A stretch of DNA of 64,000 bases from Promethearchaeota archaeon (lineage in GTDB: Archaea; Asgardarchaeota; Lokiarchaeia; Sigyniarchaeales; SOKP01), in NCBI GenBank assembly GCA_019058445.1, contig JAHPZA010000004.1, forward strand, positions 96,001-160,000. Direction: 5' to 3'. Below are positions 1 through 63,186 of this stretch, one piece after another. The first letter of the stretch is position 1. Each line of letters starts with the position of its first letter. Both the position numbers and the translations under genes were made by a program. The notes below the pieces were generated by a model, which was given only the letters and a program-made list of their open reading frames with translations, made no database searches and was not told the origin of the DNA.

Positions 1-1825
1 ACTTCTCTTTATCTAATCTAAGTTCTTCGGGTTCGAATAAGTCCACATCTTTTTTGAACTTTATTATATAGTCCGTTATTGTATTGCAAAAATCATCAAA
101 TTCACTTTCATTGAATTCAAAACCTAACTCGCGGCTTAAACCTATTTTACTAAGATCTCCCCATGATACATCAGCTCCTTTTATTGGAATGATTTGAATT
201 TTATGTGTCCGAGCTAATTCAAGTTCATGAGCGCAATCCACAGAATTAAATACAGATTTCTGAGATGCGAAAAATAGTAAAAGTTGGGATTCAGGTACTC
301 GTTCATTCATAAAGTCATCAATATTGCCTGATAAATCCTCCTCACAATAGAATGCTTGATAAATTTCATTTTGTTCTTTAAGAATCTCTGATATTTTATC
401 AATCTTAAAGTAATCAAAATCAGCAACCGCATGGCTTAAGAATATGTTTAATGTTGCGTTTTTCCTACAAAATTTTAAGATTTCAGGGATCTCTTTAGTA
501 ATAACTTTCTGTGATTCTTCATTCCATGGATTATTCTCTAATAAGAGTTGTGTTAGGTTATCTAAAGACCATATTGGTCCAGGGAGTTCAGAAAAATTAT
601 TCATCCTTAAATCAAGATAATCCAAAGCTTCTAAGTTACCTATCGATCTAGGAAGTGATTTTAATTTGTTGGAGATTAAACTTAACTTTTCGAGTGATTT
701 GAGTTCTCCTATTTCATCTGGTATATCTTCAAATTCATTTTGACTCAAATTTAGTAATTTAAGATTTGTTAATTTTCGAATGGAACTAATGATAGTTTTC
801 AACTCATTACTACTTAGACTGAGATATTCTAATGACGATAAGTTTCCTATAGAATCCGGTAATTTATTTATTTTATTATACCCCAATTCTAAGTTTTTTA
901 GTGAATTTAAATTTCCAATTGATTCCGGAATTGAAATAATTTGATTACTTTCTAAATCAAGACTTTTTAATTCCACAAGATTTCCTATTGAAGCCGGGAT
1001 ACTTACTAATTTACCACGTTTTATTTGCATTTTTTGAAGTGATTTGAGATTTCCAATCGATTCTGGCAGTGAGCCAAAATTTTTTGCATTTCTTATACTG
1101 AGTTCCCTAAGTGATATAAGTCCCCCAATAGTTTCAGGAAGAGATTCAAAAATAGTATTACCAGACAAATCTAGTTCTTCAAGATACGAAAGGTTTCCAA
1201 TAGAATTTGGAAGTGTTTTAAGATTATCAATATTCCGTAAATCTAAAATATTAAGATAAGAAAGATTTCCTATCGAATCGGGGAGATTATTTATATTTTT
1301 ATTACTTGCTAGGATTAATTCTTTAAGAGAAGTAAGATTTCCTATGAAGTCTGGAAGATGTGGTATTTGAGTAGAACTTAAATCTAACTTTTCAAGCGCA
1401 TTTAAGTTTTCCATAGAGTCTGGTAAGTTAATTCCTCTATTTATACTTAATAACAATGTTTTGAGAGATCTAAGTTCTCCAATCGAACTCGGAAGAGTCT
1501 CTAATCTATTGTTAGTCAAATCCAAAATTTCTAAGGATTTAAGATTTCCAATCGATTCGGGGAGCGTTTTCAATTCATTATTTTTTAAATAAAGAGCCCT
1601 AAGCGATGCTAAATTTCCAATTGATTCGGGGAGTTCTGGTAATCCGCTCACCATCATTGTTATTGAAATAATCTCATTATTCTCAACTTCATAATACATA
1701 TTTCTATTTAGATTACTAGTCTCAACTTCCTGTTTACTTGGTACTGGACGTTTAAATCTTGATAAATTGCCCAATTCTTTTAGTAATTCCAAATCTTCCC
1801 ATTTTAAATTATTTACATCTGCCAT
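1..1825 (-). CDS. Leucine-rich-repeat protein with C-terminal TIR domain (3' end runs off window)
   Basis: Hand translation (absent from ORF track because open to the edge): ATG at 1825 (MADVNNLKWEDLELL), roughly 16 LRRs of type LPESIGNLxxLxxLxLxxN, then LNIFLSHAVADF...AFYCEEDLSG...SVFNSVDCAHELELA...IIPIKG (TIR box 1 and conserved Glu). Confidence 0.85.
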   Translation of the reverse strand, partial: MADVNNLKWEDLELLKELGNLSRFKRPVPSKQEVETSNLNRNMYYEVENNEIISITMMVSGLPELPESIGNLASLRALYLKNNELKTLPESIGNLKSLEILDLTNNRLETLPSSIGELRSLKTLLLSINRGINLPDSMENLNALEKLDLSSTQIPHLPDFIGNLTSLKELILASNKNINNLPDSIGNLSYLNILDLRNIDNLKTLPNSIGNLSYLEELDLSGNTIFESLPETIGGLISLRELSIRNAKNFGSLPESIGNLKSLQKMQIKRGKLVSIPASIGNLVELKSLDLESNQIISIPESIGNLNSLKNLELGYNKINKLPDSIGNLSSLEYLSLSSNELKTIISSIRKLTNLKLLNLSQNEFEDIPDEIGELKSLEKLSLISNKLKSLPRSIGNLEALDYLDLRMNNFSELPGPIWSLDNLTQLLLENNPWNEESQKVITKEIPEILKFCRKNATLNIFLSHAVADFDYFKIDKISEILKEQNEIYQAFYCEEDLSGNIDDFMNERVPESQLLLFFASQKSVFNSVDCAHELELARTHKIQIIPIKGADVSWGDLSKIGLSRELGFEFNESEFDDFCNTITDYIIKFKKDVDLFEPEELRLDKEK

Positions 1826-2016
1826 TGTTAACCATATCTCTTTAGTAATTATTTCTTTTATATGTTAAAGTGACTGTTTTTACCGTAAAAACAAATAATT
1901 AATACTGATTTTTAATATTTGCTTAAAGTTATTTTAATTTCAAATTTCTAAAAAAGATTTCAATGAACGTAAACTTAATTTAAAAAAAATTCTAATTATT
2001 TTATAAAAAAGCCAAA

Positions 2017-2649
2017 GTGATGATAATTCAAGAAAAGCTAAAATTATTAACTGAGAGTCTTAAAGAAGATTTAAAGGTCCCAGAAGAAGTAATTTATTTA
2101 TTACTGAATTTGAATGAGGATGTTAGATTAATTGAAAGTAAGAGTATATTGATCCAAGCATTAATAGATATGATTATTAAAACAAAATCCTCGATTATAA
2201 TATATACTCCATTTGCTATTCCTGAGATTTTACAAACTGCATCGGAATTTGCATATCAGAGAAAAAGTGCAAGGTTTTTGCTTACATGTAAATGGGATAT
2301 GATGGCATATGGAGATATAATTAAAAAAATGAGAATGCTGGGAAACATCTTTTTTCGAAATATTGACATGCCATCTAAATATTATTTATGTTCTCGAGAT
2401 GCCAGTGATTGGTTATTAGGAATATCTAGTGAAAGTGAAACTATAACTATTCAATGTTCAGATGAAAATAAATCTAATGTTATTGCTGAAATCATGTCAT
2501 ATTTTTTTGAAATATCAAAACCAATGGACGTTGCATTTAAAGTAGCAGCAATGAAAGCAAAAATAGAAAAGAAAAAAATTAAAGACGCAAAGAAAAAGGC
2601 TAAAAAAGAAAGAAAAAAAGAAAAAAAGATGAAAAAAATGTATAAATAA
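2017..2649 (+). CDS. Hypothetical protein with Lys-rich C-terminal tail
   Basis: 210 aa ORF, divergent from the LRR-TIR gene; no family recognised with certainty. Confidence 0.6.
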   Translation: MMIIQEKLKLLTESLKEDLKVPEEVIYLLLNLNEDVRLIESKSILIQALIDMIIKTKSSIIIYTPFAIPEILQTASEFAYQRKSARFLLTCKWDMMAYGDIIKKMRMLGNIFFRNIDMPSKYYLCSRDASDWLLGISSESETITIQCSDENKSNVIAEIMSYFFEISKPMDVAFKVAAMKAKIEKKKIKDAKKKAKKERKKEKKMKKMYK

Positions 2650-2727: not shown

Positions 2728-2860
2728 GGGAGGGTGGTCTAGCTTGGTATGATACATAATTTGTCGTTCAGCCAAATTAGGCGAATCGGCTGGGGCAGTC
2801 AAAGCTTTTGCTTGGATTACAGAAGCCGAGTGGCCGGGGGTTCAATTCCCCCCTCTCCCA
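2728..2860 (+). tRNA. tRNA-Pro(GGG) with two introns (2756-2785 at position 27/28; 2796-2824 at 37/38)
   Basis: Acceptor GGGAGGG/CTCTCCC plus A73; D-arm GTCTAGCTTGGTATGAT; anticodon stem CTCGG/CCGAG forms only after removing 2756-2785; loop CT-GGG-G; T-arm GGGGG-TTCAATT-CCCCC; both introns contain hairpins with BHB-like bulges; CCA not encoded. Confidence 0.88.
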
Positions 2861-2866
2861 TTTTAA

Positions 2867-3715
2867 TCAATAATAATCGAAAGAGCCATATTTTTCACAG
2901 TATTTTGAAAAAATTTTAGATTTATTTTCTTGAAAAAAGGTCGATTGAACCATAATGTGGCAATTTCTACACAAACATATACAATTTTCATTTATAATAA
3001 TATTTCTAAGTTTATCCATATCCGAAACTGTTATAAAATAGTAAGAAATAGGTTTAGTTTTTTTCAAAGGATCAAGATGGTGAATTTCAAGTGCTGGTAA
3101 ATTGTCAATATTATTGAATGTAATCCCAAAACCGCAACTAGTACAATACCCTCTGCATATATCTAAAATCATTAATTTTTTTCTTACAATCCGTTGTATA
3201 CCTTGTCTTAATGCATGATTAGGGATTAGTGTTGGGGTAATTACTGTGGGATCATGAATCTTAAGAATTATATCCATATATTCATAAAAGAATTTAGATT
3301 GAAGTTTCATATGACAATTCCTACAAATAACGATCACTTTTTGTTTTATTATTTCATTTTTAATTATTGACCAATTTTTATAGCGCACACTTCTCCAAAA
3401 ACCTTTTTCCCTTGCTTTTATAGTTGATAATTCAGGATCAAGATGGTGGAAGTCTAACATTGGAAGGTTATCAATGCCCACCTCATTACAAATTTGACAT
3501 CTGTTCAAATCCTTAGTAACGAACCTTATAGCTTGGATTTTATTAATCCAACTCTTCATCTGTAGTCTATAAGCTTCTGCTTTTATATCACATTTTTTAC
3601 ATGTAGGTCTTCTTTTTTTTGAATTTGTATAAAATTTGAATTCAGAATACGGTTTAATTTGATGACATTTGCTACATTCTTTTTCTTTTTTTTCTGAATT
3701 ATTATATAAACTCAT
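2867..3715 (-). CDS. Zn-finger plus tandem HNH-like endonuclease
   Basis: N-terminal CSKC...CKKC; two repeats of CxxC...L[DE]xHHLDP...CRNCH. Confidence 0.75.
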   Translation of the reverse strand: MSLYNNSEKKEKECSKCHQIKPYSEFKFYTNSKKRRPTCKKCDIKAEAYRLQMKSWINKIQAIRFVTKDLNRCQICNEVGIDNLPMLDFHHLDPELSTIKAREKGFWRSVRYKNWSIIKNEIIKQKVIVICRNCHMKLQSKFFYEYMDIILKIHDPTVITPTLIPNHALRQGIQRIVRKKLMILDICRGYCTSCGFGITFNNIDNLPALEIHHLDPLKKTKPISYYFITVSDMDKLRNIIINENCICLCRNCHIMVQSTFFQENKSKIFSKYCEKYGSFDYY

Positions 3716-3835
3716 TTTTTGCTTATATTTAGTAGAATTTTAATTTACATTATAATTGAAATTGCTATATTTAAAGGAAAATAATGTGAGCCCAAAGAAA
3801 GAAGAATAATATATCAAAGGAAAAAGAATAAAAGA

Positions 3836-5113
3836 TTAATAGGTCTTTTTATCAATTTCTTCTTCGACATATTTGATATGGTTTTTAAGCTTATTTCTTA
3901 ATTCTTCTTTATTTGTTGCTAAACTCAATACTAATTGGCAATCTTGACAAAGAGCTACTATATTGTAAATTGAATTAAGTCCCCCTTTATGTGGAGGTGT
4001 TATGTATTCAAGTTCTAAATATGGTTTATTATTCCTGTCGACATGGGGAGATTTTTTTCCACAATTTTCACAATATCCATCAGCTCTGAATAATACATAT
4101 TCTTCAATATTATCGGTCTTTTTAAATCCCCGTATTTTAATTTCTACTGGTGATGGAATTTCTTCTAAATTTTTCACTCTCTTCCTTATATTAAGAAATT
4201 CGGGATTAGCAATTCTATTTACTTTTAGTAAAACCGCATCTCTAAATTGAGTAACTATTTTTCCATCCTTATTTTGTCTTATTTCTATTCCAGTGCATTT
4301 TAAAGGATCTTCAATAGTTAATAAAATCGTTCTTTCTTTTCCTTTAATAATTTCACCATATTTAATGGGAAATGGTTGCTCTAGTTTCTTTGGTTTATAA
4401 CCAAAAATTGAAGCGATATTTACAGCAAATTCATTAAAATCAAAATAAGCTTTTCTAAAGAAACTTAAAGCATCGATTTTCAAATAGTAAGATGTCTTAT
4501 TAATTGATCGTTCTTGAGGATTGTCAGGTAGATAGATTACTAACTTTTCTTCAGGATTGAGTTGTAAAAAAGTATGATCAATTATTCCTTGGTAATGTTG
4601 TTCTAAATCTCTATACTGTTTAATTCTTGAACCTGATTTTTTCCAATAAATATTGAATTCCCTTTTTATATCTTCCTTGAATTTATAATTATTTAAGTTC
4701 TTCATAACAGCATTAAAACTTCTAGGAACATTAAAAATCGAAGTTTCTTTCTTTATTATCTTGAGAAAGTAATCCTGCATTATTCTCATTGAATTAAGGA
4801 AGGGATTGAAATCGATTACCATATCAACTAATACTGGAGACCAGAAATTGATTCTTTCTGTATTTAATGATAAAGAAGGCTTTTGCATTTTAAATTGTTG
4901 TACACAAAACCTCGCACTTTCTTCCATAGAAAGCAAACGATAAATACCTGAATATGCTCGAAATAAGAACCATTCAATATTGGCTTTTTGATTAATAATC
5001 TCGATAATATCTTTAGGATTTCTACCATTAACTTTAGAGGCTATAGATTCTAACCAGCCTCCTAAATTTTGAAATAAGTTATATTGATTAAAAAAATTAA
5101 CATTATAGTACAA
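3836..5113 (-). CDS. Putative HEPN-domain protein with degenerate C-terminal HNH
   Basis: YRDLEQH (RxxxxH) in helical N-terminal half; C-terminal CENC...YLELEYITP..GG...NIVALCQDCQ (HNH fold, His positions replaced). Confidence 0.6.
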   Translation of the reverse strand: MYYNVNFFNQYNLFQNLGGWLESIASKVNGRNPKDIIEIINQKANIEWFLFRAYSGIYRLLSMEESARFCVQQFKMQKPSLSLNTERINFWSPVLVDMVIDFNPFLNSMRIMQDYFLKIIKKETSIFNVPRSFNAVMKNLNNYKFKEDIKREFNIYWKKSGSRIKQYRDLEQHYQGIIDHTFLQLNPEEKLVIYLPDNPQERSINKTSYYLKIDALSFFRKAYFDFNEFAVNIASIFGYKPKKLEQPFPIKYGEIIKGKERTILLTIEDPLKCTGIEIRQNKDGKIVTQFRDAVLLKVNRIANPEFLNIRKRVKNLEEIPSPVEIKIRGFKKTDNIEEYVLFRADGYCENCGKKSPHVDRNNKPYLELEYITPPHKGGLNSIYNIVALCQDCQLVLSLATNKEELRNKLKNHIKYVEEEIDKKTY

Positions 5114-5219
5114 ATAAGTTTACCTCTATTAATCTAAAATAATGAGTTTATTCTCTACTAAATCTATTTTTTTATTATTATTTTAATAAATAAAGTGACT
5201 ACAAGTTTAATGAAAATTT

Positions 5220-5298
5220 GGCTAGGGCAGTCAAAGCATTAGCTTAGTTTACAGAAGCCGAGTAGTCGGGGGTTCAATTCCCCCCTCTCCCATTTTAA
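5220..5298 (+). repeat. Degenerate copy of tRNA-Pro 3' part including intron 2 (att-like site 2)
   Basis: Aligns without gaps to 2788-2866, 7 mismatches in 79 nt. Confidence 0.92.
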
Positions 5299-5409
5299 CA
5301 CTTTTAATTTATAAAGAACTTTTTCTATATCTATATATTCTCTATAGATCTATTATTATTCTATATACTATGGTGATGATCTATATATATTGTTTTATAT
5401 AATATTAAA

Positions 5410-6114
5410 TTGAAGGATATGATGGCGAAATGTCAAAATTTAATGAATAAATTAAAAACTGATTCTAAGAATAATCATTTGTCAATAGATACAATATGGG
5501 AAGAAACTTGCACTCTTCGCAGTGGAGGTTTTGTGGGAGGAATAATTTTTTTATTTCCATCTGTTTTATTACTGCTGATGTTGATATTTATCTTTCCATT
5601 TGGTGCTCTATTATTTGGCATCCCACTTTTAATATTATCATTTTCATGTATTTATAATTCTAATACTCCGTTGATAAGATTTACAAATTCTGAGCTTATT
5701 GTTAGAAATAATGATTTAAAAAGAAAGAAGCATTTCCTTCTTTCTCAAATAAAAGAAATACACATAATTATCATTAAGAGAAAAGTATATTGTAAGAATG
5801 GAACTTATTATGCTTATTCGAAATTCAAATTTAATATTTTAACACTTTCTCGCGAATATCGTTATAAATTTTATTGGGGTTTTTATGAAGCGACTAAATT
5901 TCTTTTTAAAGGATATTCAGAAGCTAAACAAAAAGCAATCGAAAAAAGGTCTGAATTTGAGAGGGCTCTTAAAAATTTAGAAAAAATTTTTCCAGATCTA
6001 ATTGATTTTATAGATTTAGTTCCACCAGAGAAATCTGAATCCGGGTGGATAGGGATACTATGTTTAATTGGAATTTGTATCTTAGTAGGAATTTCTATTT
6101 TTTTTTGGAGCTAA
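5410..6114 (+). CDS. Hypothetical membrane protein
   Basis: 234 aa; two N-proximal and one C-terminal hydrophobic segments; stop codon lies inside the tRNA-derived repeat. Confidence 0.7.
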   Translation: MKDMMAKCQNLMNKLKTDSKNNHLSIDTIWEETCTLRSGGFVGGIIFLFPSVLLLLMLIFIFPFGALLFGIPLLILSFSCIYNSNTPLIRFTNSELIVRNNDLKRKKHFLLSQIKEIHIIIIKRKVYCKNGTYYAYSKFKFNILTLSREYRYKFYWGFYEATKFLFKGYSEAKQKAIEKRSEFERALKNLEKIFPDLIDFIDLVPPEKSESGWIGILCLIGICILVGISIFFWS

Positions 6115-6150
6115 GTTGCCAGGGGTTCAATTCCCCCCTCTCCCATTTAA
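6109..6150 (+). repeat. Degenerate tRNA-Pro 3'-end copy (att-like site 3)
   Basis: AGCTAAGTTGCCAGGGGTTCAATTCCCCCCTCTCCCATTT vs tRNA AGCCGAGTGGCCGGGGGTTCAATTCCCCCCTCTCCCATTT. Confidence 0.9.
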
Positions 6151-6271
6151 ACTAATAATCTTCAAAAATTTCTAAATTAAAAATTGGACTCCTTTATGAA
6201 TAAATTCTATACTGATTTTTTGAATTTAATTTCCAACCATATTGCATAAGAATTTTGAGTAGAAGTTAAAA

Positions 6272-6862
6272 ATGGCTTCAAATGAAAAAAAGTCAAAAGA
6301 AGAAATAAAAAAGGAGATTATTCAATTTTTAAATATCACTTCTGGAAAAGTGGATCATAGTCCAGATGAATTTAGCTGTGGAAACATACATAACACTAGT
6401 TTAGTTCTTGCGACTTGCAGCAAAGACGTTCCAAGAGCTACACCACTTGAATTCTTTAATGAAGGACTTATTATATATATATTTGGTCAAGCAGGGGGTA
6501 AAATACTCAATATCAAAAGAAATAAAAAAGTGGCAGCTGCAATTTACGAACAACCTTTGGTACATTCAAGAATCCAAAAAAATCTTCAGATATTTGGAGT
6601 GGCAGAATTAATTACTGTTAAGAATAATCCTGAATTATTTCGAGAAAAAGCGATTAAATGGAACCAATATAAGGTTGTAGAAAGCCTTTTAAAACCTGTG
6701 ATTAAACGCCAAAACTTAAGTGAGGAGGAGGTAGAAGATTTAGTTAAAAGAGGTACTGAAGCAACTTTTTTAATAAAAATTGTTCCAAACCATATTATTT
6801 TGAGAGAAATGCAAGAAGATTTCAGTATTTTTAAATCTGAATGGAAAAAAGAGAAAGAATAA
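6272..6862 (+). CDS. Pyridoxamine 5'-phosphate oxidase-like (split barrel) protein
   Basis: LVLATCSKDVPRATPLEF...GKILNIKRNKKVAAAI...LQIFGVAEL. Confidence 0.8.
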   Translation: MASNEKKSKEEIKKEIIQFLNITSGKVDHSPDEFSCGNIHNTSLVLATCSKDVPRATPLEFFNEGLIIYIFGQAGGKILNIKRNKKVAAAIYEQPLVHSRIQKNLQIFGVAELITVKNNPELFREKAIKWNQYKVVESLLKPVIKRQNLSEEEVEDLVKRGTEATFLIKIVPNHIILREMQEDFSIFKSEWKKEKE

Positions 6863-6947
6863 TATTATATTTCTATATTATTAAATTGAAAAAAATTTAC
6901 CAACTATTTCTAAACAAATAATTTATCTTTTCCAAAGAATATGGATA

Positions 6948-6980
6948 TGGTCGGGGGTTCAATTCCCCCATCTCCCATTT
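6948..6980 (+). repeat. Degenerate tRNA-Pro 3'-end copy (att-like site 4)
   Basis: TGGTCGGGGGTTCAATTCCCCCATCTCCCATTT; 2 mismatches in 33 nt to 2831-2863. Confidence 0.9.
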
Positions 6981-7123
6981 CTATTAACAAAATTTATTCC
7001 TATATTTTTCAAAAATTTCTTATAAATATTTTTGAGTTTTTAGAGAAATACAATCACATACTATACTATTTATTTATCAATGATAAAAACATAAAAAAAA
7101 GATTCCTTTTTTGCTTTAGATAA

Positions 7124-8107
7124 TTATTTCAGATACTCATCAACCCATCTTATAATCTCCTTGCTTTCTTCATCAGGTTTTACTATAGGAATACCATGCC
7201 CACAGTGCATTCGTACATACTTCCAGCTGCCTTTTACAAGTGATTTAACGCGAGCTACCTCCTCATCACTTATAGCACCCAAAAGTCGTCCCTCATACAT
7301 AAACCAATTTGCATGCAAAAATAGTATTGGTTGTGCAACCTTAGCAAGAGTTTCTGCGTGATCGAAATCTTTACCTACCGATCCATCCAAAAATGCCTTT
7401 GTGAAAGTAAAATCGAACTGTGAATTACCTTTCAGAAGAATACGTCTTTCTGGAGGCAAGAACTTTAAATCTACCGGACTATTTGGTCGGAAGAACAGTT
7501 TTATTGCAATTATTTTTGAAATGAAATTTATTATAAACTTAGGAGGTAATTTTATATTCAATACTTCTTTTGCTATACTTCCCATTAGGGTGATACTTTC
7601 CTTGAAATATTTCGGGAGGCCACCGCCACCTGGAGTTCCCATGATTTCTACAAGCATCGTAAAGACATCGTAAACCCACGTGGTTTTTATGGTCGGCCAT
7701 TCACAGAGAAAGAGCGGGGGATCTTCGCAGATCACTCCTTTCACCCATTCTGGTGAATTTGCCGCTAGCCAAACTGATAATACACCTCCTGAAGAATTAC
7801 CCCCCACTATAGCAGGCCTTCCTACAACTTCACGCAAGAAAGCAGTCATATCCTTCCCCAATATATTAAAAGTATATTTTCCCGGAGTAAATGTAGATTT
7901 GCCATGCCCACGCAGAGTTACAGCAAAGACTTGGAAGCGATGTGCAAGCTTTGGAAGAAGTAGCATATATTCTTCCCAGGTAACACCTTGTCCGGGAATA
8001 AAGACTAAAGGTGTCCCGTTGGGCGGGCCAGCTACATAATTTAATTTAATTTCACCAGTGTCAAAAAATCCCTCCTCTATTCCTGCTTTTTTTAATATTT
8101 TATTCAT
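7124..8107 (-). CDS. Alpha/beta-fold hydrolase
   Basis: LVFIPGQG, LRGHGKS, nucleophile elbow GNSSGG, C-terminal GHGI. Confidence 0.88.
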   Translation of the reverse strand: MNKILKKAGIEEGFFDTGEIKLNYVAGPPNGTPLVFIPGQGVTWEEYMLLLPKLAHRFQVFAVTLRGHGKSTFTPGKYTFNILGKDMTAFLREVVGRPAIVGGNSSGGVLSVWLAANSPEWVKGVICEDPPLFLCEWPTIKTTWVYDVFTMLVEIMGTPGGGGLPKYFKESITLMGSIAKEVLNIKLPPKFIINFISKIIAIKLFFRPNSPVDLKFLPPERRILLKGNSQFDFTFTKAFLDGSVGKDFDHAETLAKVAQPILFLHANWFMYEGRLLGAISDEEVARVKSLVKGSWKYVRMHCGHGIPIVKPDEESKEIIRWVDEYLK

Positions 8108-8213
8108 TATTTTCCTTTCTCTGAGTATAATAAATTATTTCTATATAATTTACTCATTCTGAAAAAATATTGAAGATTATATAAAGATTGTTTTAATTAC
8201 TAATTTTAAGACA

Positions 8214-9470
8214 TTATGAATTATGTTTTTCATTATATTCGTTCACTGCTTCCAACGCTGCGACGATATTCTCAGGAGGGACATCAGGTAATATATTATG
8301 GATGGCATTCCAAACATAACCTCCCCCAGGTGCGAAAATTTCAAGCAATTCTTTCACATGTGTTTTGACTTCTTCAGGAGATTTACGATTAAAGATAAAA
8401 CGAGTATCAACACCCCCACCCCAAAACGTAATATCATCTCCAAAATTTTCCTTCAAATATTTCGGGTCCATATCTCTTGCGCTAATTTGAACAGGATTAA
8501 GAATGTCAATTCCACATTCAATTAGATCAGGTAAAAGTTTTACAATAGACCCGCACGAATGGAAGAAAATCTTCATAGAACTATGTTTTTTTACATAATC
8601 ACATAATTCTTGATGTCCTCTTTTGAAAAATTTCCTGTAAGTTTTAAGGCTAATCATTGGTCCTTTATTTTCTCCTAAATCATCTCCAAAAGTAATAATA
8701 TCAAGCACATCCCCAAGATATTTACACACTACTTTTAAAGCGTTAATATAAAATTCGATCTGTAAATCAACAAATTTTACTACCTTTGTTGGATTTCGAA
8801 TTGTATCTATGAGAAACTTATCCATTCTTCTAAAAGAATGAGTTCCTTGAAATATATTCGTAGTAAGACATAAAATTATTATTTTATTTGTTTCTTGACG
8901 CAGTTTAATCACGTTGTCTCTTAAATTTTTCCAAAACCTTTTCTCACCCATATTACTAAGAGGGGGAATAACACCCTTGGCCCATAGATTTTTATCTAAA
9001 GCTTGTATGTAGGATTGTAAGTCAAATTTTTCAGGATATTTTTCCAGCCAAGGATAATAAGTTTGATCCATAACAAGAGAATCCTTTGACATTCTTCCAA
9101 TAATAGTGCCATCGGAATGAATCAGTTCGAAAGAACCATCGGGATTGTGCCTCGGTGAAAGATAAACAGGAAATTGTGCCTTAATGCCATGCAACTCAAC
9201 ATCATACCAATCTTTATCTTCTGTAAGATAAGCTGAACCTATATCAATTGCATCAATACCGAAACGTTCAATAAACCAATCTTCGACCCGAGCCAATTGT
9301 TGAACCATATCATATACCCGAACATATCCTTCTTTTATTCCCAAATAATTTTTTAAATTGTTATATGCGATTGCTGAAATCCCTGTCATATTAGTTGACC
9401 CGATATCAACAGGAACTCTATCAGGTTCTTTATGATTAATACTAGCAAGTATTCTTTCTCTAGAATTAAT
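8214..9470 (-). CDS. Uroporphyrinogen decarboxylase family (MtaA/CmuA-like methyltransferase); probable ATT start
   Basis: GDDLG, FFHSCG, LNPVQISA, FWGGGVDT, GGYVWNAIHNI; frame extends 27 codons above the track ATG to (I)NSRERILASINHKEPDRVP. Confidence 0.85.
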   Translation of the reverse strand: MNSRERILASINHKEPDRVPVDIGSTNMTGISAIAYNNLKNYLGIKEGYVRVYDMVQQLARVEDWFIERFGIDAIDIGSAYLTEDKDWYDVELHGIKAQFPVYLSPRHNPDGSFELIHSDGTIIGRMSKDSLVMDQTYYPWLEKYPEKFDLQSYIQALDKNLWAKGVIPPLSNMGEKRFWKNLRDNVIKLRQETNKIIILCLTTNIFQGTHSFRRMDKFLIDTIRNPTKVVKFVDLQIEFYINALKVVCKYLGDVLDIITFGDDLGENKGPMISLKTYRKFFKRGHQELCDYVKKHSSMKIFFHSCGSIVKLLPDLIECGIDILNPVQISARDMDPKYLKENFGDDITFWGGGVDTRFIFNRKSPEEVKTHVKELLEIFAPGGGYVWNAIHNILPDVPPENIVAALEAVNEYNEKHNS

Positions 9471-9607
9471 TTTTTACACCCAATTTATTTTATATTATAA
9501 GTATAAAATTATTGATAAAATTTAATTTTGGACCTGTTAAATACAATTTTCTTCTGATGATTTGTAGTATACTATTGAATTAATAAAGAATATTAATCAA
9601 AAAATTC

Positions 9608-9637
9608 ATGGATTCAAATCCCACTTCTCCCATTTAA
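9608..9637 (+). repeat. Highly diverged tRNA 3'-end remnant (att-like site 5)
   Basis: ATGGATTCAAATCCCACTTCTCCCATTTAA: T-loop plus TCTCCCATTT shared with sites 1-4. Confidence 0.65.
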
Positions 9638-9686: not shown

Positions 9687-10937
9687 CTAATTTTCTGTAT
9701 TATATTCATCCACAGCTTCCAACGCTGCGATAATATTCTCAGGAGGGACATCAGGTAATATATTGTGGATAGCATTCCATACATAACCACCTCCAGGAGC
9801 AAAAATTTCAAGTAATTCTTTGACATGTTTTTTAACTTGCTCGGGTGATTTCCGATTGAGAATATTACGAGTGTCCGCTCCGCCTCCCCAAAAAGTAATC
9901 TCATCCCCAAAAGTTTCTTTTAGATATTTTGGATCCATACCTTTTGCGCTAATTTGAATAGGGTTTAGGATATCTATTCCACATTCTATAAAATCCGGAA
10001 TTAATTTCACGACTGATCCGCAAGAATGAAAAAATATCTTCATTGAACTGTGTTTTTTTATATATTGACATAATTCTTCATTTCCTCGTTTGAAAAATTT
10101 TCGGTACGTTTCAGGATTGATTATTGGCCCATTATTTTCGCCAAAGTCATCACCAAGAGTAATTATATCCACAACATCTCCCACATATTTACATATAACT
10201 TTAAGAGCATTAATAAAAAATTCAATTTGAAGATCAACGAGTTTTTCTATTTTAGATGGTTTTTGTTTAATATCGAGGACAGTTTTGTCCATCCCCCTAA
10301 TACCATGAATGCCCTCGAAAACCCCTGCTCCAAAATGCAAGATGACTGCTTTTTGAGTTTTTTCACGTAGTTGGATAGCATTATCTCTTAATTTACGCCA
10401 AAATCTCTTCTCTCCCATATTGCTAAAGGGTGGAATCATACATTGTGATCCAACATTATTATCGAATGCATTTAATAATGATTGGAAGTTTAAATTCTCG
10501 GGATACCCCTCACCAAATGGATAATAAGTCTGGTGTATGTATAACGTGTCTTTAGACATGTTCCCTAATATTGTTCCATCAGAATGAATAACTTCGATAG
10601 AATCATCGGGGTTGTGTCTGGGTTGAAAATAAGTAGGGAATTGTGCCTTAATGCCATGCAGTTTAACATCGTACCAATCTTTATCTTCTGTAAGATAAGC
10701 GGAACCTAAATCAATCACATCAATTCCAAAACGTTCGATAAACCAATCCTCAACGCGAGCTAATTGTTGTATGAGGTCATATATTCGAACATTTCCTTCT
10801 TTGATATTTAAATAGTTTTTTAAATTATAGTAGGCTATTGCCGAAATCCCAGTGATTGGAGTAGATCCAATATCTACTGGAACGCGATCTGGTTCCTTAT
10901 GATTAATAGCGGTCAATACACGCTCTCTAGAATAAAT
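9687..10937 (-). CDS. Uroporphyrinogen decarboxylase family paralog; probable ATT start
   Basis: Close paralog of 8214-9470; frame extends to (I)YSRERVLTAINHKEPDRVP. Confidence 0.85.
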   Translation of the reverse strand: MYSRERVLTAINHKEPDRVPVDIGSTPITGISAIAYYNLKNYLNIKEGNVRIYDLIQQLARVEDWFIERFGIDVIDLGSAYLTEDKDWYDVKLHGIKAQFPTYFQPRHNPDDSIEVIHSDGTILGNMSKDTLYIHQTYYPFGEGYPENLNFQSLLNAFDNNVGSQCMIPPFSNMGEKRFWRKLRDNAIQLREKTQKAVILHFGAGVFEGIHGIRGMDKTVLDIKQKPSKIEKLVDLQIEFFINALKVICKYVGDVVDIITLGDDFGENNGPIINPETYRKFFKRGNEELCQYIKKHSSMKIFFHSCGSVVKLIPDFIECGIDILNPIQISAKGMDPKYLKETFGDEITFWGGGADTRNILNRKSPEQVKKHVKELLEIFAPGGGYVWNAIHNILPDVPPENIIAALEAVDEYNTEN

Positions 10938-61742: not shown

Positions 61743-63186
61743 GTGAACTACTACTACCTAAAGGTAGTAGCTTCCTACGAGTCCGCACCTACTTTTGCAG
61801 TTGGCTTGACTGTATGTCGTAGAAAACCATTCCACTTTTGAAGGAATAGTTCCTCGTCCACAGAGGATTCATGTGATAGGAAATCATATTCGCCTAATTC
61901 TTTTGCTTTCAAGAATTTGACCATGATATTGACCGCTGAATTCAAGTCTCGGTCAATCTGATTCCCACAATCGCACCTAATAAATCTTTCGTAGATAGCT
62001 CTCTTTGAGAGCTTTCCACACTTACAACAGGCTTTCGTCGTCTTATCCTCACCAATTCTTATTACTCTTTTACCTAACTTTTCAGCTTTATAGGTCAAGA
62101 ATTCGGCAAATCGCGACATGAAACCCGCATTATAAACAGAGTGATTAAGTGTCTTTTTTGCTTTGGTCTTCTTAGCGTTTCCCGTTCCCTTCTTTTTCTT
62201 AGCCATTTATTTTACGGATAATTTTCCGATGATAATGGTATTTGCTTTGGTGTTCTCAACAACCTGCTTGGATAACCAATGTTGGTAATCTTTTAGCTGG
62301 GTTGTTTGTTTTCGCTTCATTTTTATTAGTTTGCTATTGTACCAATGCCATTTCTTACTCTTTTTCTTGCAGTGATCTCGTTTGGATTGCACTTGTTCAA
62401 GCTTTTTTTTCCAATAGAGATCTGCTCTTCTATGTCTGAATGAAATAAATTTACCATGAAGGTTTACTCCTGCTGTTTGAGAAATGCCTAAATCTAAAGC
62501 TTGATAAAGACCGTTATCTTTATATTTTGGCGGAAAAATTTCGTAGGTAATGGAAATGAACCAGCGCTTAAGTGAATCTAAAAATATTTCCACTTGCTTT
62601 ATAGTTTCTTTTGGAATAAGCTCTTTCGGTAATCCAAACGATAATACTTCTTTAGAGGGATGCTTATGAGAAAAATTGATAGTAGAATTTTCTATTATGA
62701 ATCCTGATTGATTGTAACTTAATGTTGTGAAGTATTTTTTGCTTTTGAAACGTGGCGATCTTGCTTTTTTATCTCCATTTTTCCAAAGAGCTGTAAATGA
62801 TTTATAGTTTGCATCAAGCTTCTTTAAGATCATTTGGAGTACTTTTGAATATACCCATTTATATTCCGGATATTTTTCTTTGATAACCGGTAATTGGTTT
62901 TGCTGATGGGTATAATTAATGAATTTTCGTTCTATCTTGGGTTTTTTCTTATTCTTTTTCCAATTTTCAATCCGTTCTGCTAACGCAAAATTATAAATAA
63001 GGCGACATTTTTCTGACAAATCCCACAATACTTTAACTTGTGAATCTGTTGGAAAAATTGGTAATTTTTGCGTTAGGTTCATAGTATGTTAGAATAATCT
63101 AATCGAAATCTATAAAAACGAGAGTTCGATGGTTTAATGAATTTTTAATTGACCACCCCCTAAAGAGGAGTGGCCTTCTTTTCTAT
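61743..63186 (-). mobile_element. IS200/IS605-family, tnpB-only (IS1341-type) element
   Basis: Right end on minus strand GGAAGCTACTACCTTTAGGTAGTAGTAGTTCAC (hairpin then TCAC); left-end hairpin GGCCACTCCTCTTTAGGGGGTGGTC at 63151-63175; left boundary approximate; no tnpA. Confidence 0.85.
61775..63082 (-). pseudogene. tnpB: TnpB split by one in-frame TAA (62207-62209)
   Basis: HTH N-terminus (IFPT..Q...CRLIYN.AL), RuvC-I ALDLG, Zn finger CCKCG..CDCG, RuvC-III DRDLNSAVNI; the two ORFs are contiguous and in frame. Confidence 0.9.

Follow-up and report, generated by a model that had tools for sequence, protein, structure and literature searches.

The locus and its repeats

The stretch of DNA studied here, called the window in what follows, is a segment of 64,000 nucleotides (nt) from the genome of an Asgard archaeon of the Lokiarchaeia type (Promethearchaeota), and the subject here is an array of four small gene units lying directly downstream of a tRNA-Pro(GGG) gene. 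The units are bounded by displaced copies of the 3' end of that tRNA, and the first of them, next to the tRNA, contains a gene for a protein with two HNH nuclease motifs in tandem, the double-HNH gene. Table 1 lists the features of the array and of its right flank. The window corresponds to G000:C4:96001-160000, in a genome of 4.6 Mb, about 31% GC, 10 contigs and 92.6% completeness; G000 designates this genome, the other G labels designate the genomes, and the L labels the contigs and loci, with which it was compared. The family comparison set holds 121 genomes, 120 of them besides G000; genome G002 belongs to the same genus as G000.

Table 1. Features of the array downstream of tRNA-Pro(GGG), in window coordinates.
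Feature	Position	Strand	Evidence or remarks
tRNA-Pro(GGG), two introns	2728..2860	+	ARAGORN in intron mode, sister tRNA-Pro(UGG), intron-less family alleles
Double-HNH endonuclease gene, 282 aa (unit 1)	2867..3715	-	PHROG phrog_2255 'HNH endonuclease', 4.9e-24
Upstream (promoter) region of the HNH gene, including some 46 conserved nt; the constant module ends distally here	3716..3800	-	
Unit 1 cargo, 425-aa protein with C-terminal McrA-like HNH domain	3836..5113	-	Pfam HNH 6e-06; PADLOC mREase_IV 8.5e-13
Copy 1, displaced tRNA 3' part	5220..5298	+	79 nt, 72/79 identical
Unit 2 cargo, predicted membrane protein, ORFan	5410..6114	+	no match in Pfam, NCBIfam or PADLOC
Copy 2, displaced tRNA 3' end	6109..6156	+	48 nt, core exact
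Unit 3 cargo, NimA-like flavoprotein of the PNPOx family	6272..6862	+	Pfam PNPOx_N
Copy 3, displaced tRNA 3' end	6929..6986	+	58 nt, 50/58 identical to the G002 allele
Remnant, 3' end of a second double-HNH gene	6979..7030	-	37/42 identical to the L130 junction
Unit 4 cargo, alpha/beta hydrolase	7124..8107	-	41% GC versus 27-31% in neighbours
Unit 4 cargo, URO-D family gene #1, paralogue of the flanking gene	8214..9389	-	Pfam URO-D
Copy 4, degenerate ancestral tRNA 3' end	9610..9635	+	26 nt, 22/26 identical
URO-D #2, ancestral chromosomal flank outside the array	9687..10916	-	synteny with G002, G003 and G008

Neither ARAGORN with default settings nor Rfam reports a tRNA in the window, because the gene is interrupted by two introns. 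Its exons occupy positions 2728-2755, 2786-2795 and 2825-2860, and its introns positions 2756-2785 (at tRNA position 27/28) and 2796-2824 (at 37/38), with intron boundaries known to within 1 nt. ARAGORN reports the gene in intron mode only, under the wrong name Leu(taa). We dropped this identity in favor of Pro(GGG): the acceptor stem and D-arm match those of the tRNA-Pro(UGG) gene at C4:473790, Pro(GGG) is the most frequent valid call once the two introns are removed, and the mature sequence is visible in intron-less alleles of the same family. Default ARAGORN finds 23 tRNAs in the whole genome.

An initial annotation, made from the letters of the window alone, described an intact tRNA and, downstream on the same strand, four copies of its 3' end, a description that the core repeats and the alignments confirm. 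The 24-nt core formed by the T-arm and acceptor stem (2837-2860) has two exact repeats, at 5269-5292 and 6122-6145, and a third repeat, at 6954-6977, that differs by one mismatch. Copy 1 contains the anticodon stem, intron 2, the 3' exon and 6 additional nt; copy 3 derives from an allele of the G002 type, with an intron in the variable region. Copy 4 is weak when taken alone, with 5 mismatches in the 24-nt core; yet matches this good are scarce, since outside tRNA genes the 4.6 Mb of the genome contain only about one. The copies had been said to shorten with distance from the tRNA; their aligned lengths are 79, 48, 58 and 26 nt, which is not a strict decrease. The most decayed copy is nevertheless the one farthest from the tRNA, in agreement with the chronological stacking that the same annotation proposed.

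A genome-wide structural scan of G000 detects no orphan tRNA 3' ends elsewhere. With three exact cores, no other orphans in the genome and positional orthology with G002, a chance or artefactual origin of the repeats is ruled out. In the family set the core usually occurs once or twice per genome, which fits the two tRNA-Pro genes that bear it; clustered orphan copies of the core are found in G000, G003 and G094 only. The long repeats of the window, G003, L130 and L133 all begin at the anticodon stem/loop.

The array is an insertion

The comparison with G002 gives the state of the locus without the array. There, a leucine-rich repeat (LRR) gene and the tRNA precede a fragment of a URO-D gene homologous to window positions 9700-10037, at a distance of about 50 nt; the entire 6.75-kb array is absent, and an intact tRNA end stands where the window has copy 4. 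Copy 4 itself lies 54 nt from URO-D #2, with a flank that can be aligned to that of G002. Positions 2861-9609 are therefore an addition, and the tRNA end of the ancestral locus survives as copy 4, at the right border of the insertion. The 6.75 kb of strain-specific DNA that begin behind the working tRNA and reach to copy 4 are divided up by displaced tRNA 3' ends, and the 3' end of tRNA-Pro(GGG) is a hotspot for insertions. That the units were inserted at the tRNA had been foreseen in the initial annotation, and among the relatives examined none carries the same genes in the absence of the repeats.

Genome G003 shows another arrangement. At the end of one of its contigs, it matches window positions 8016-8206 (the first 90 nt or so of the hydrolase gene, and the region upstream) at 97% identity. 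Next come a 79-nt tRNA fragment, a small open reading frame (ORF) for a Zn-ribbon/membrane protein, a degenerate fragment, and then the URO-D gene. The G003 cassette differs from the cassettes of the window.

URO-D #1 of the window is 87% identical to the single URO-D gene of G003, which sits at the position of URO-D #2, and about 80% identical to its neighbor URO-D #2. Compared with G003, 1.37 kb are missing from the window between the region upstream of the hydrolase gene and the URO-D gene (L018). The pattern of URO-D #1 suggests that a piece of chromosomal flank may have travelled between strains along with a cassette.

The units measure from 0.83 to 2.65 kb, and the gene orientations across the array are minus, minus, plus, plus, minus and minus. 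The genes of units 1 to 3 have no close homologue in the 120 other family genomes. In these genomes the 425-aa McrA-like protein of unit 1 has distant partial homologues only, none of them at tRNA-Pro, and the membrane protein of unit 2 has a single match, at 24% identity; a search of 5.8 billion proteins yields no homologue of the latter at E<=1e-8. The flavoprotein gene of unit 3 has a relative at 74% identity in an unrelated contig of 931 bp, L135, again behind a tRNA-Pro 3' end and with similar spacing, and another, at 69%, in an ordinary chromosomal context. The hydrolase gene of unit 4 probably comes from a donor of higher GC, because its GC content is well above that of its surroundings (Table 1).

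The 5' side of tRNA-Pro(GGG) is variable too. In most genera, the genes SRP19-HypA-S8e-proteasome lie directly upstream of the tRNA; in G000, SRP19 is separated from the tRNA by an LRR-TIR gene and a 210-aa ORF (G000:C4:92701-95685 and window 2-2649).

A double-HNH nuclease gene abuts the tRNA

The first gene of the array had been counted among the cargo. It is in fact a constant gene: in 12 of 12 readable orthologue loci (45-72% identity), all from Asgard archaea, the double-HNH gene abuts the 3' end of tRNA-Pro(GGG), to which it is convergent. Its orthologues are found in Promethearchaeota/Lokiarchaeia sequences only. The stop codon of the window gene lies 6 nt from the end of the tRNA, and the same gap of 6 nt is found in L128, L130 and L133.

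In the 282-aa protein, a Zn ribbon at the N terminus is accompanied by two complete HNH motifs. Both repeats are matched by phrog_2255, and the closest profile matches are phage HNH endonucleases; the score of the Pfam HNH profile falls slightly under its cut-off. Six orthologues show no variation in the Zn-binding and catalytic residues of the two motifs, and the protein looks like an active nuclease.

Beyond the start codon, the block of about 46 nt in the promoter region is the only stretch conserved between the window, L133, L130 and G112. The constant part of the element thus measures about 0.95 kb and is made of the double-HNH gene, which ends a few nt after the tRNA, and its promoter. 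Behind this module lie 0 to 3 cargo genes, which vary, and beyond them a displaced piece of the tRNA 3' part, 7 to 79 nt long.

A displaced tRNA fragment beyond the gene and variable cargo is present at 7 of the 12 orthologue loci. In G094, G112 and G061 the unit consists of the nuclease gene alone, in about 1 kb. The units of L128, L130 and L133 include, besides that gene, a conserved module of three genes (L128:2942-4827, L130:1103-2947 and L133:582-2298), and their terminal fragment measures about 70-79 nt. One gene of the module encodes a TIGR04255-family protein of about 247 aa; the products of the other two, 172-236 aa and 150 aa long, belong to no known family. The module may be a defence or toxin-type system. 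In L133, the fragment is near-identical to the L133 tRNA over about 73 nt; the insertion in L133 is therefore recent.

More distant double-HNH homologues, at 30-37% identity and in ORFs of 265-726 aa, are found at four loci, L122-L125 (G117:C53, G073:C56, G074:C48 and G022:C201), where they end convergently 35-264 nt from the 3' end of another tRNA, with a Glu-like acceptor. No orphan repeats were found at these Glu-like tRNA loci; therefore the association may be one of stable synteny.

Distribution and horizontal movement

The double-HNH gene is present in 6 of the 121 family genomes, in 4 genera. Empty sites are seen in G122 and G143: in G122 the neighboring gene ends 21 nt from the tRNA, and the homologous gene of G094 ends 23 nt from the orphan fragment.

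The history of the gene can be compared with that of its hosts, using a tree of SRP19, HypA and S8e genes taken from the same contigs as the HNH genes. The two trees conflict. The HNH tree groups the window with L128 (97/97) and G112 with G135 (100/99), whereas the host-gene tree groups the window with L130 (95/99) and places G135 outside the clade of G112 (88/98). Pairwise identities of HNH genes and host genes are uncorrelated (rho 0.18).

The pair G112 and G135 has some 970 nt in common (about 88% identity), a tract that runs from the start of the tRNA through both introns and the HNH gene to just past the promoter, between flanks that are about 68% and 40% identical. This is the one pair that provides evidence of co-conversion. 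A crossover at the anticodon loop would have left behind the tRNA 5' half that the common tract contains.

The double-HNH gene has the marks by which free-standing homing endonucleases are recognised: a fixed site, a patchy presence, empty sites, a tree in conflict with that of the hosts, and conserved residues of the HNH family. The unit next to the tRNA thus appears to belong to a recurrent element, probably mobile between lineages, whose only constant gene is the nuclease. The initial annotation, for which the units were too small to be autonomous and had to be driven in trans, overlooked this nuclease.

Decay of the units

The remnant that follows copy 3 indicates that unit 1 is not the only unit of this type. 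A stretch of 42-52 nt matches the 3' end of a double-HNH gene of the L130 type with a z-score of 8.7 against shuffled sequences (7.3 for L133), and its register to the tRNA end is that of intact elements. Therefore unit 4 began as a second, different element. No significant HNH remnant is found after copies 1, 2 and 4.

Contigs L136, L140 and L141 capture another deletion. Their segment made of the HNH gene and the tRNA is 100% identical to that of L133 over 1,156 nt, and they lack 2,092 nt: the three cargo genes, and the orphan fragment except for its last 7 nt. The endpoints of the deletion are not att sites. Such deletions explain the small size of units and the unequal lengths of the orphan copies. 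Small size, taken at first as the native state of the units, is thus partly a product of decay.

Possible exchange of tRNA introns

Intron content was surveyed at window 2728-2860 and at loci L014, L019-L023, L028, L070, L073, L080 and L128-L133. Alleles of tRNA-Pro(GGG) in the family have no intron, the 27/28 intron only, the 37/38 intron only, or both. In addition, the alleles of G002 and G006 combine the 27/28 intron with an intron in the variable region, and those of L129 and L132 have an intron in the T-loop.

Orphan and working copies of the tRNA differ in intron type in three cases: copy 3 of the window, L128, where the orphan fragment has an insert in the T-loop, and G094, where the orphan retains the end of a 37/38 intron that the working gene lacks. 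Such differences suggest that the traffic of elements swaps tRNA 3' halves together with their introns. The model proposed for tRNA intron change in Caldiarchaeum (PMC3293823) is in line with intron swapping here.

Successive homing as a proposed explanation for the array

The reading that best accounts for these observations, to which we give a probability of roughly 55%, is that the array results from successive invasions by a homing-type HNH element bearing a replacement tRNA 3' half, followed by decay through deletions. The nuclease would cut tRNA-Pro(GGG) loci that do not contain the element, and the break would be mended from an occupied copy. Since the element would supply a replacement 3' half, the tRNA would stay intact and its old 3' end would be shifted downstream. 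Repeated invasions by different lineages of the element would stack units, with the newest adjoining the tRNA, and ordinary deletions would then strip the nuclease gene and part of the tRNA fragment from older units, yielding what look like cassettes of one or two genes.

We propose more tentatively that this is a previously undescribed type of archaeal mobile element, in which a tandem double-HNH nuclease, and not a recombinase or a transposase, would drive entry at the 3' end of tRNA-Pro(GGG) with a replacement tRNA half and a cargo bay, and whose repeated homing would build arrays and swap tRNA introns between Asgard lineages.

Several observations weigh against successive homing. Units 2 and 3 contain neither a nuclease gene nor a recognisable remnant of one, and their origin from an HNH element is an extrapolation. 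Genome G003 has cassettes bounded by tRNA fragments and no nuclease orthologue in an assembly that is 91% complete. The orphan fragment is not seen at 5 of the 12 orthologue loci. Working and orphan 3' halves are 64-86% identical, with no clear pattern, in the window, L130, L133, G008 and others, so that this comparison does not tell which of the two is the native allele. The structure model of the nuclease is mediocre (pLDDT 70): HNH enzymes rank first among its fold matches, at levels that are not significant. Archaeal tyrosine integrases cross over at the anticodon stem/loop (PMC8371274), precisely where the long repeats start. Finally, the scenario gives no account of how an occupied locus escapes cutting. 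Because units 2 and 3 are without trace of a nuclease, and the G003 cassettes without an orthologue, part of the array may have another origin.

Integrases and other alternatives

The main rival to homing is a tyrosine integrase that remains unseen, being carried by a virus or plasmid absent from the assemblies. It would insert non-autonomous units, either satellites or cis-mobilisable elements, and the double-HNH gene would be cargo kept for defence, addiction or competition. Overall, we consider this explanation unlikely, though it has real attractions. A duplication that begins at the anticodon stem/loop and stops shortly after the tRNA end is the classic geometry of archaeal integrases (PMC8371274), and tycheposons, which do bear integrases, form stacks with partial tRNAs between elements and the newest adjoining the tRNA (10.1101/2020.12.28.424599). 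Cassettes without an HNH gene exist in the window and in G003, and a genome at the present level of completeness leaves room for the integrase, since extrachromosomal elements often stay unbinned.

No integrase or fragment of one is found in some 15 copies of the element, and none of the PF00589 matches listed for the 121 genomes is near a tRNA-Pro core. On the window's stretch of contig C4 there is no PF00589 match; G000 as a whole has only two, one at C9:114618, in a XerA-like gene kept in every genome of the genus, and one at C6:27026, at the edge of a provirus. Profile searches for SSV-type integrases, resolvases, DDE_Tnp_1 and Cas1 families are negative, and the 24-nt core is on no viral contig of IMG/VR. 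Two further observations are hard to reconcile with an integrase acting in trans: the tract common to G112 and G135 takes in the tRNA 5' half and the first intron, and the sole constant gene of the element is a nuclease at a fixed distance of 6 nt from the tRNA end.

Specific candidates for the role were also considered. The C6 match belongs to a 301-aa tyrosine integrase (C6:26666-27571) with which a provirus-like run of small same-strand ORFs begins (G000:C6:26181-42000). We rejected it as a driver in trans, since it borders this provirus-like run and has no tRNA-Pro-like site nearby; the check suggested at the outset, for an integrase elsewhere whose attP matches, gives nothing for it. A suicidal integrase of the SSV type was rejected as well: no ORF runs across any att copy, PF16795 has no match over its cut-off in the genome, and the HNH gene, rather than being split as int(N)/int(C), is whole and ends in a stop codon of its own. 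Neither the genes of the units nor the companion genes of the 3.1-kb form of the element match a recombinase in Pfam, NCBIfam or PHROGs. The companion genes were examined as possible hidden recombinases, and discarded: they encode the TIGR04255-family protein and two proteins without family, with no recombinase motifs.

The statement of the initial annotation that the 64 kb contain no recombinase stands as far as tyrosine and serine recombinases, DDE_Tnp_1 and Cas1 are concerned, and there is no integrase in or near the units. It left out the double-HNH nuclease of unit 1 and a truncated TnpB-like (Cas12f1-like_TNB) frame at window 61925-62113. Another TnpB-like frame, full-length at 432 aa, is found at G000:C4:90008-90211, some 8.7 kb upstream of the tRNA.

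It is also conceivable, with a probability that we judge quite low, that the units are deletion remnants of several large proviruses or plasmids that once had integrases, the HNH gene being one survivor. Deletion decay is documented, in L136, L140 and L141 and by the HNH remnant, and islands of tycheposons hold remnants of this kind (10.1101/2020.12.28.424599). However, the freshest copy, L133, with near-identical repeats, is just 3.1 kb long and has four genes, none of them an integrase. A large version is found neither in the 121 genomes nor in the contigs that hold some 30 orthologues, so that in no relative do the units appear as large integrase-bearing elements.

An integron-like platform, in which a dedicated recombinase takes in promoterless cassettes at a fixed site and expresses them, as the initial annotation had imagined, would fit the small units split by a repeated site and their diverse foreign cargo, but can practically be set aside, since there is no IntI-type gene and no attI, the repeats are tRNA ends and not attC hairpin sites, genes have both orientations, and the array is rare, being limited to three genomes of the family.

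Relation to known systems

Successive homing of a nuclease-bearing element has a proven analogue in the mORFs of fungal mitochondria, endonuclease ORFs that bring a replacement 3' end to a gene and displace the native one, and that spread by cutting ORF-less alleles, which are then repaired from an occupied copy (PMC3630166). Those of Allomyces atp6 and of Glomus atp6, atp9, cox2 and nad3 share with the present element an endonuclease gene at the 3' end of a host gene, a replacement end, and a displaced duplicate that decays. Here, in contrast, the element sits at a tRNA gene of an archaeal chromosome, its nuclease has two HNH motifs in tandem and is not of the LAGLIDADG or GIY-YIG type, cargo genes and an array of repeated invasions are present, and the nuclease activity is predicted from sequence.

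The free-standing homing endonucleases of T-even phages, such as SegB in the tRNA region of T4, and MobE, also have genes outside introns and inteins, at fixed positions and with patchy presence. They co-convert their flanks and can mobilise neighboring DNA (PMC2988022, PMC2790892). Unlike the present element, they do not duplicate their target or carry cargo that ends in a fragment of the target gene, and the host here is the cellular chromosome of an Asgard archaeon.

Tycheposons, and the 'gene capture' attributed to archaeal integrases, resemble the array in having partial tRNAs between units, the newest unit at the tRNA, and older ones pushed inward as decaying remnants (10.1101/2020.12.28.424599; PMC8371274). 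They carry a tyrosine recombinase or fragments of it; here there is none, and a nuclease gene occupies the tRNA-proximal place. At the tRNA-Thr(GGU) locus of Caldiarchaeum, the insertion of a mobile element likewise leaves a tRNA fragment and alters intron content (PMC3293823). That element, 1.8 kb long, has a gene for a predicted DNA recombinase, and the tRNA fragment that remains is a 5' one, whereas the displaced parts are here 3' parts and the enzyme is an HNH nuclease.

Significance

Genomic islands linked to tRNA genes are normally credited to integrases. If the nuclease drives insertion at tRNA-Pro(GGG), there would be a second route, free of recombinases, to arrays of cargo at tRNA genes, and the element would be a cellular counterpart of the mitochondrial elements that replace the 3' ends of genes. 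For Asgard genomes, it would be a vehicle for the import of foreign genes, such as the hydrolase gene with 41% GC, a defence-like nuclease and an ORFan. It would also be a vehicle for the fast turnover of tRNA introns, which are found at position 27/28, at position 37/38, in the variable region and in the T-loop within one family.

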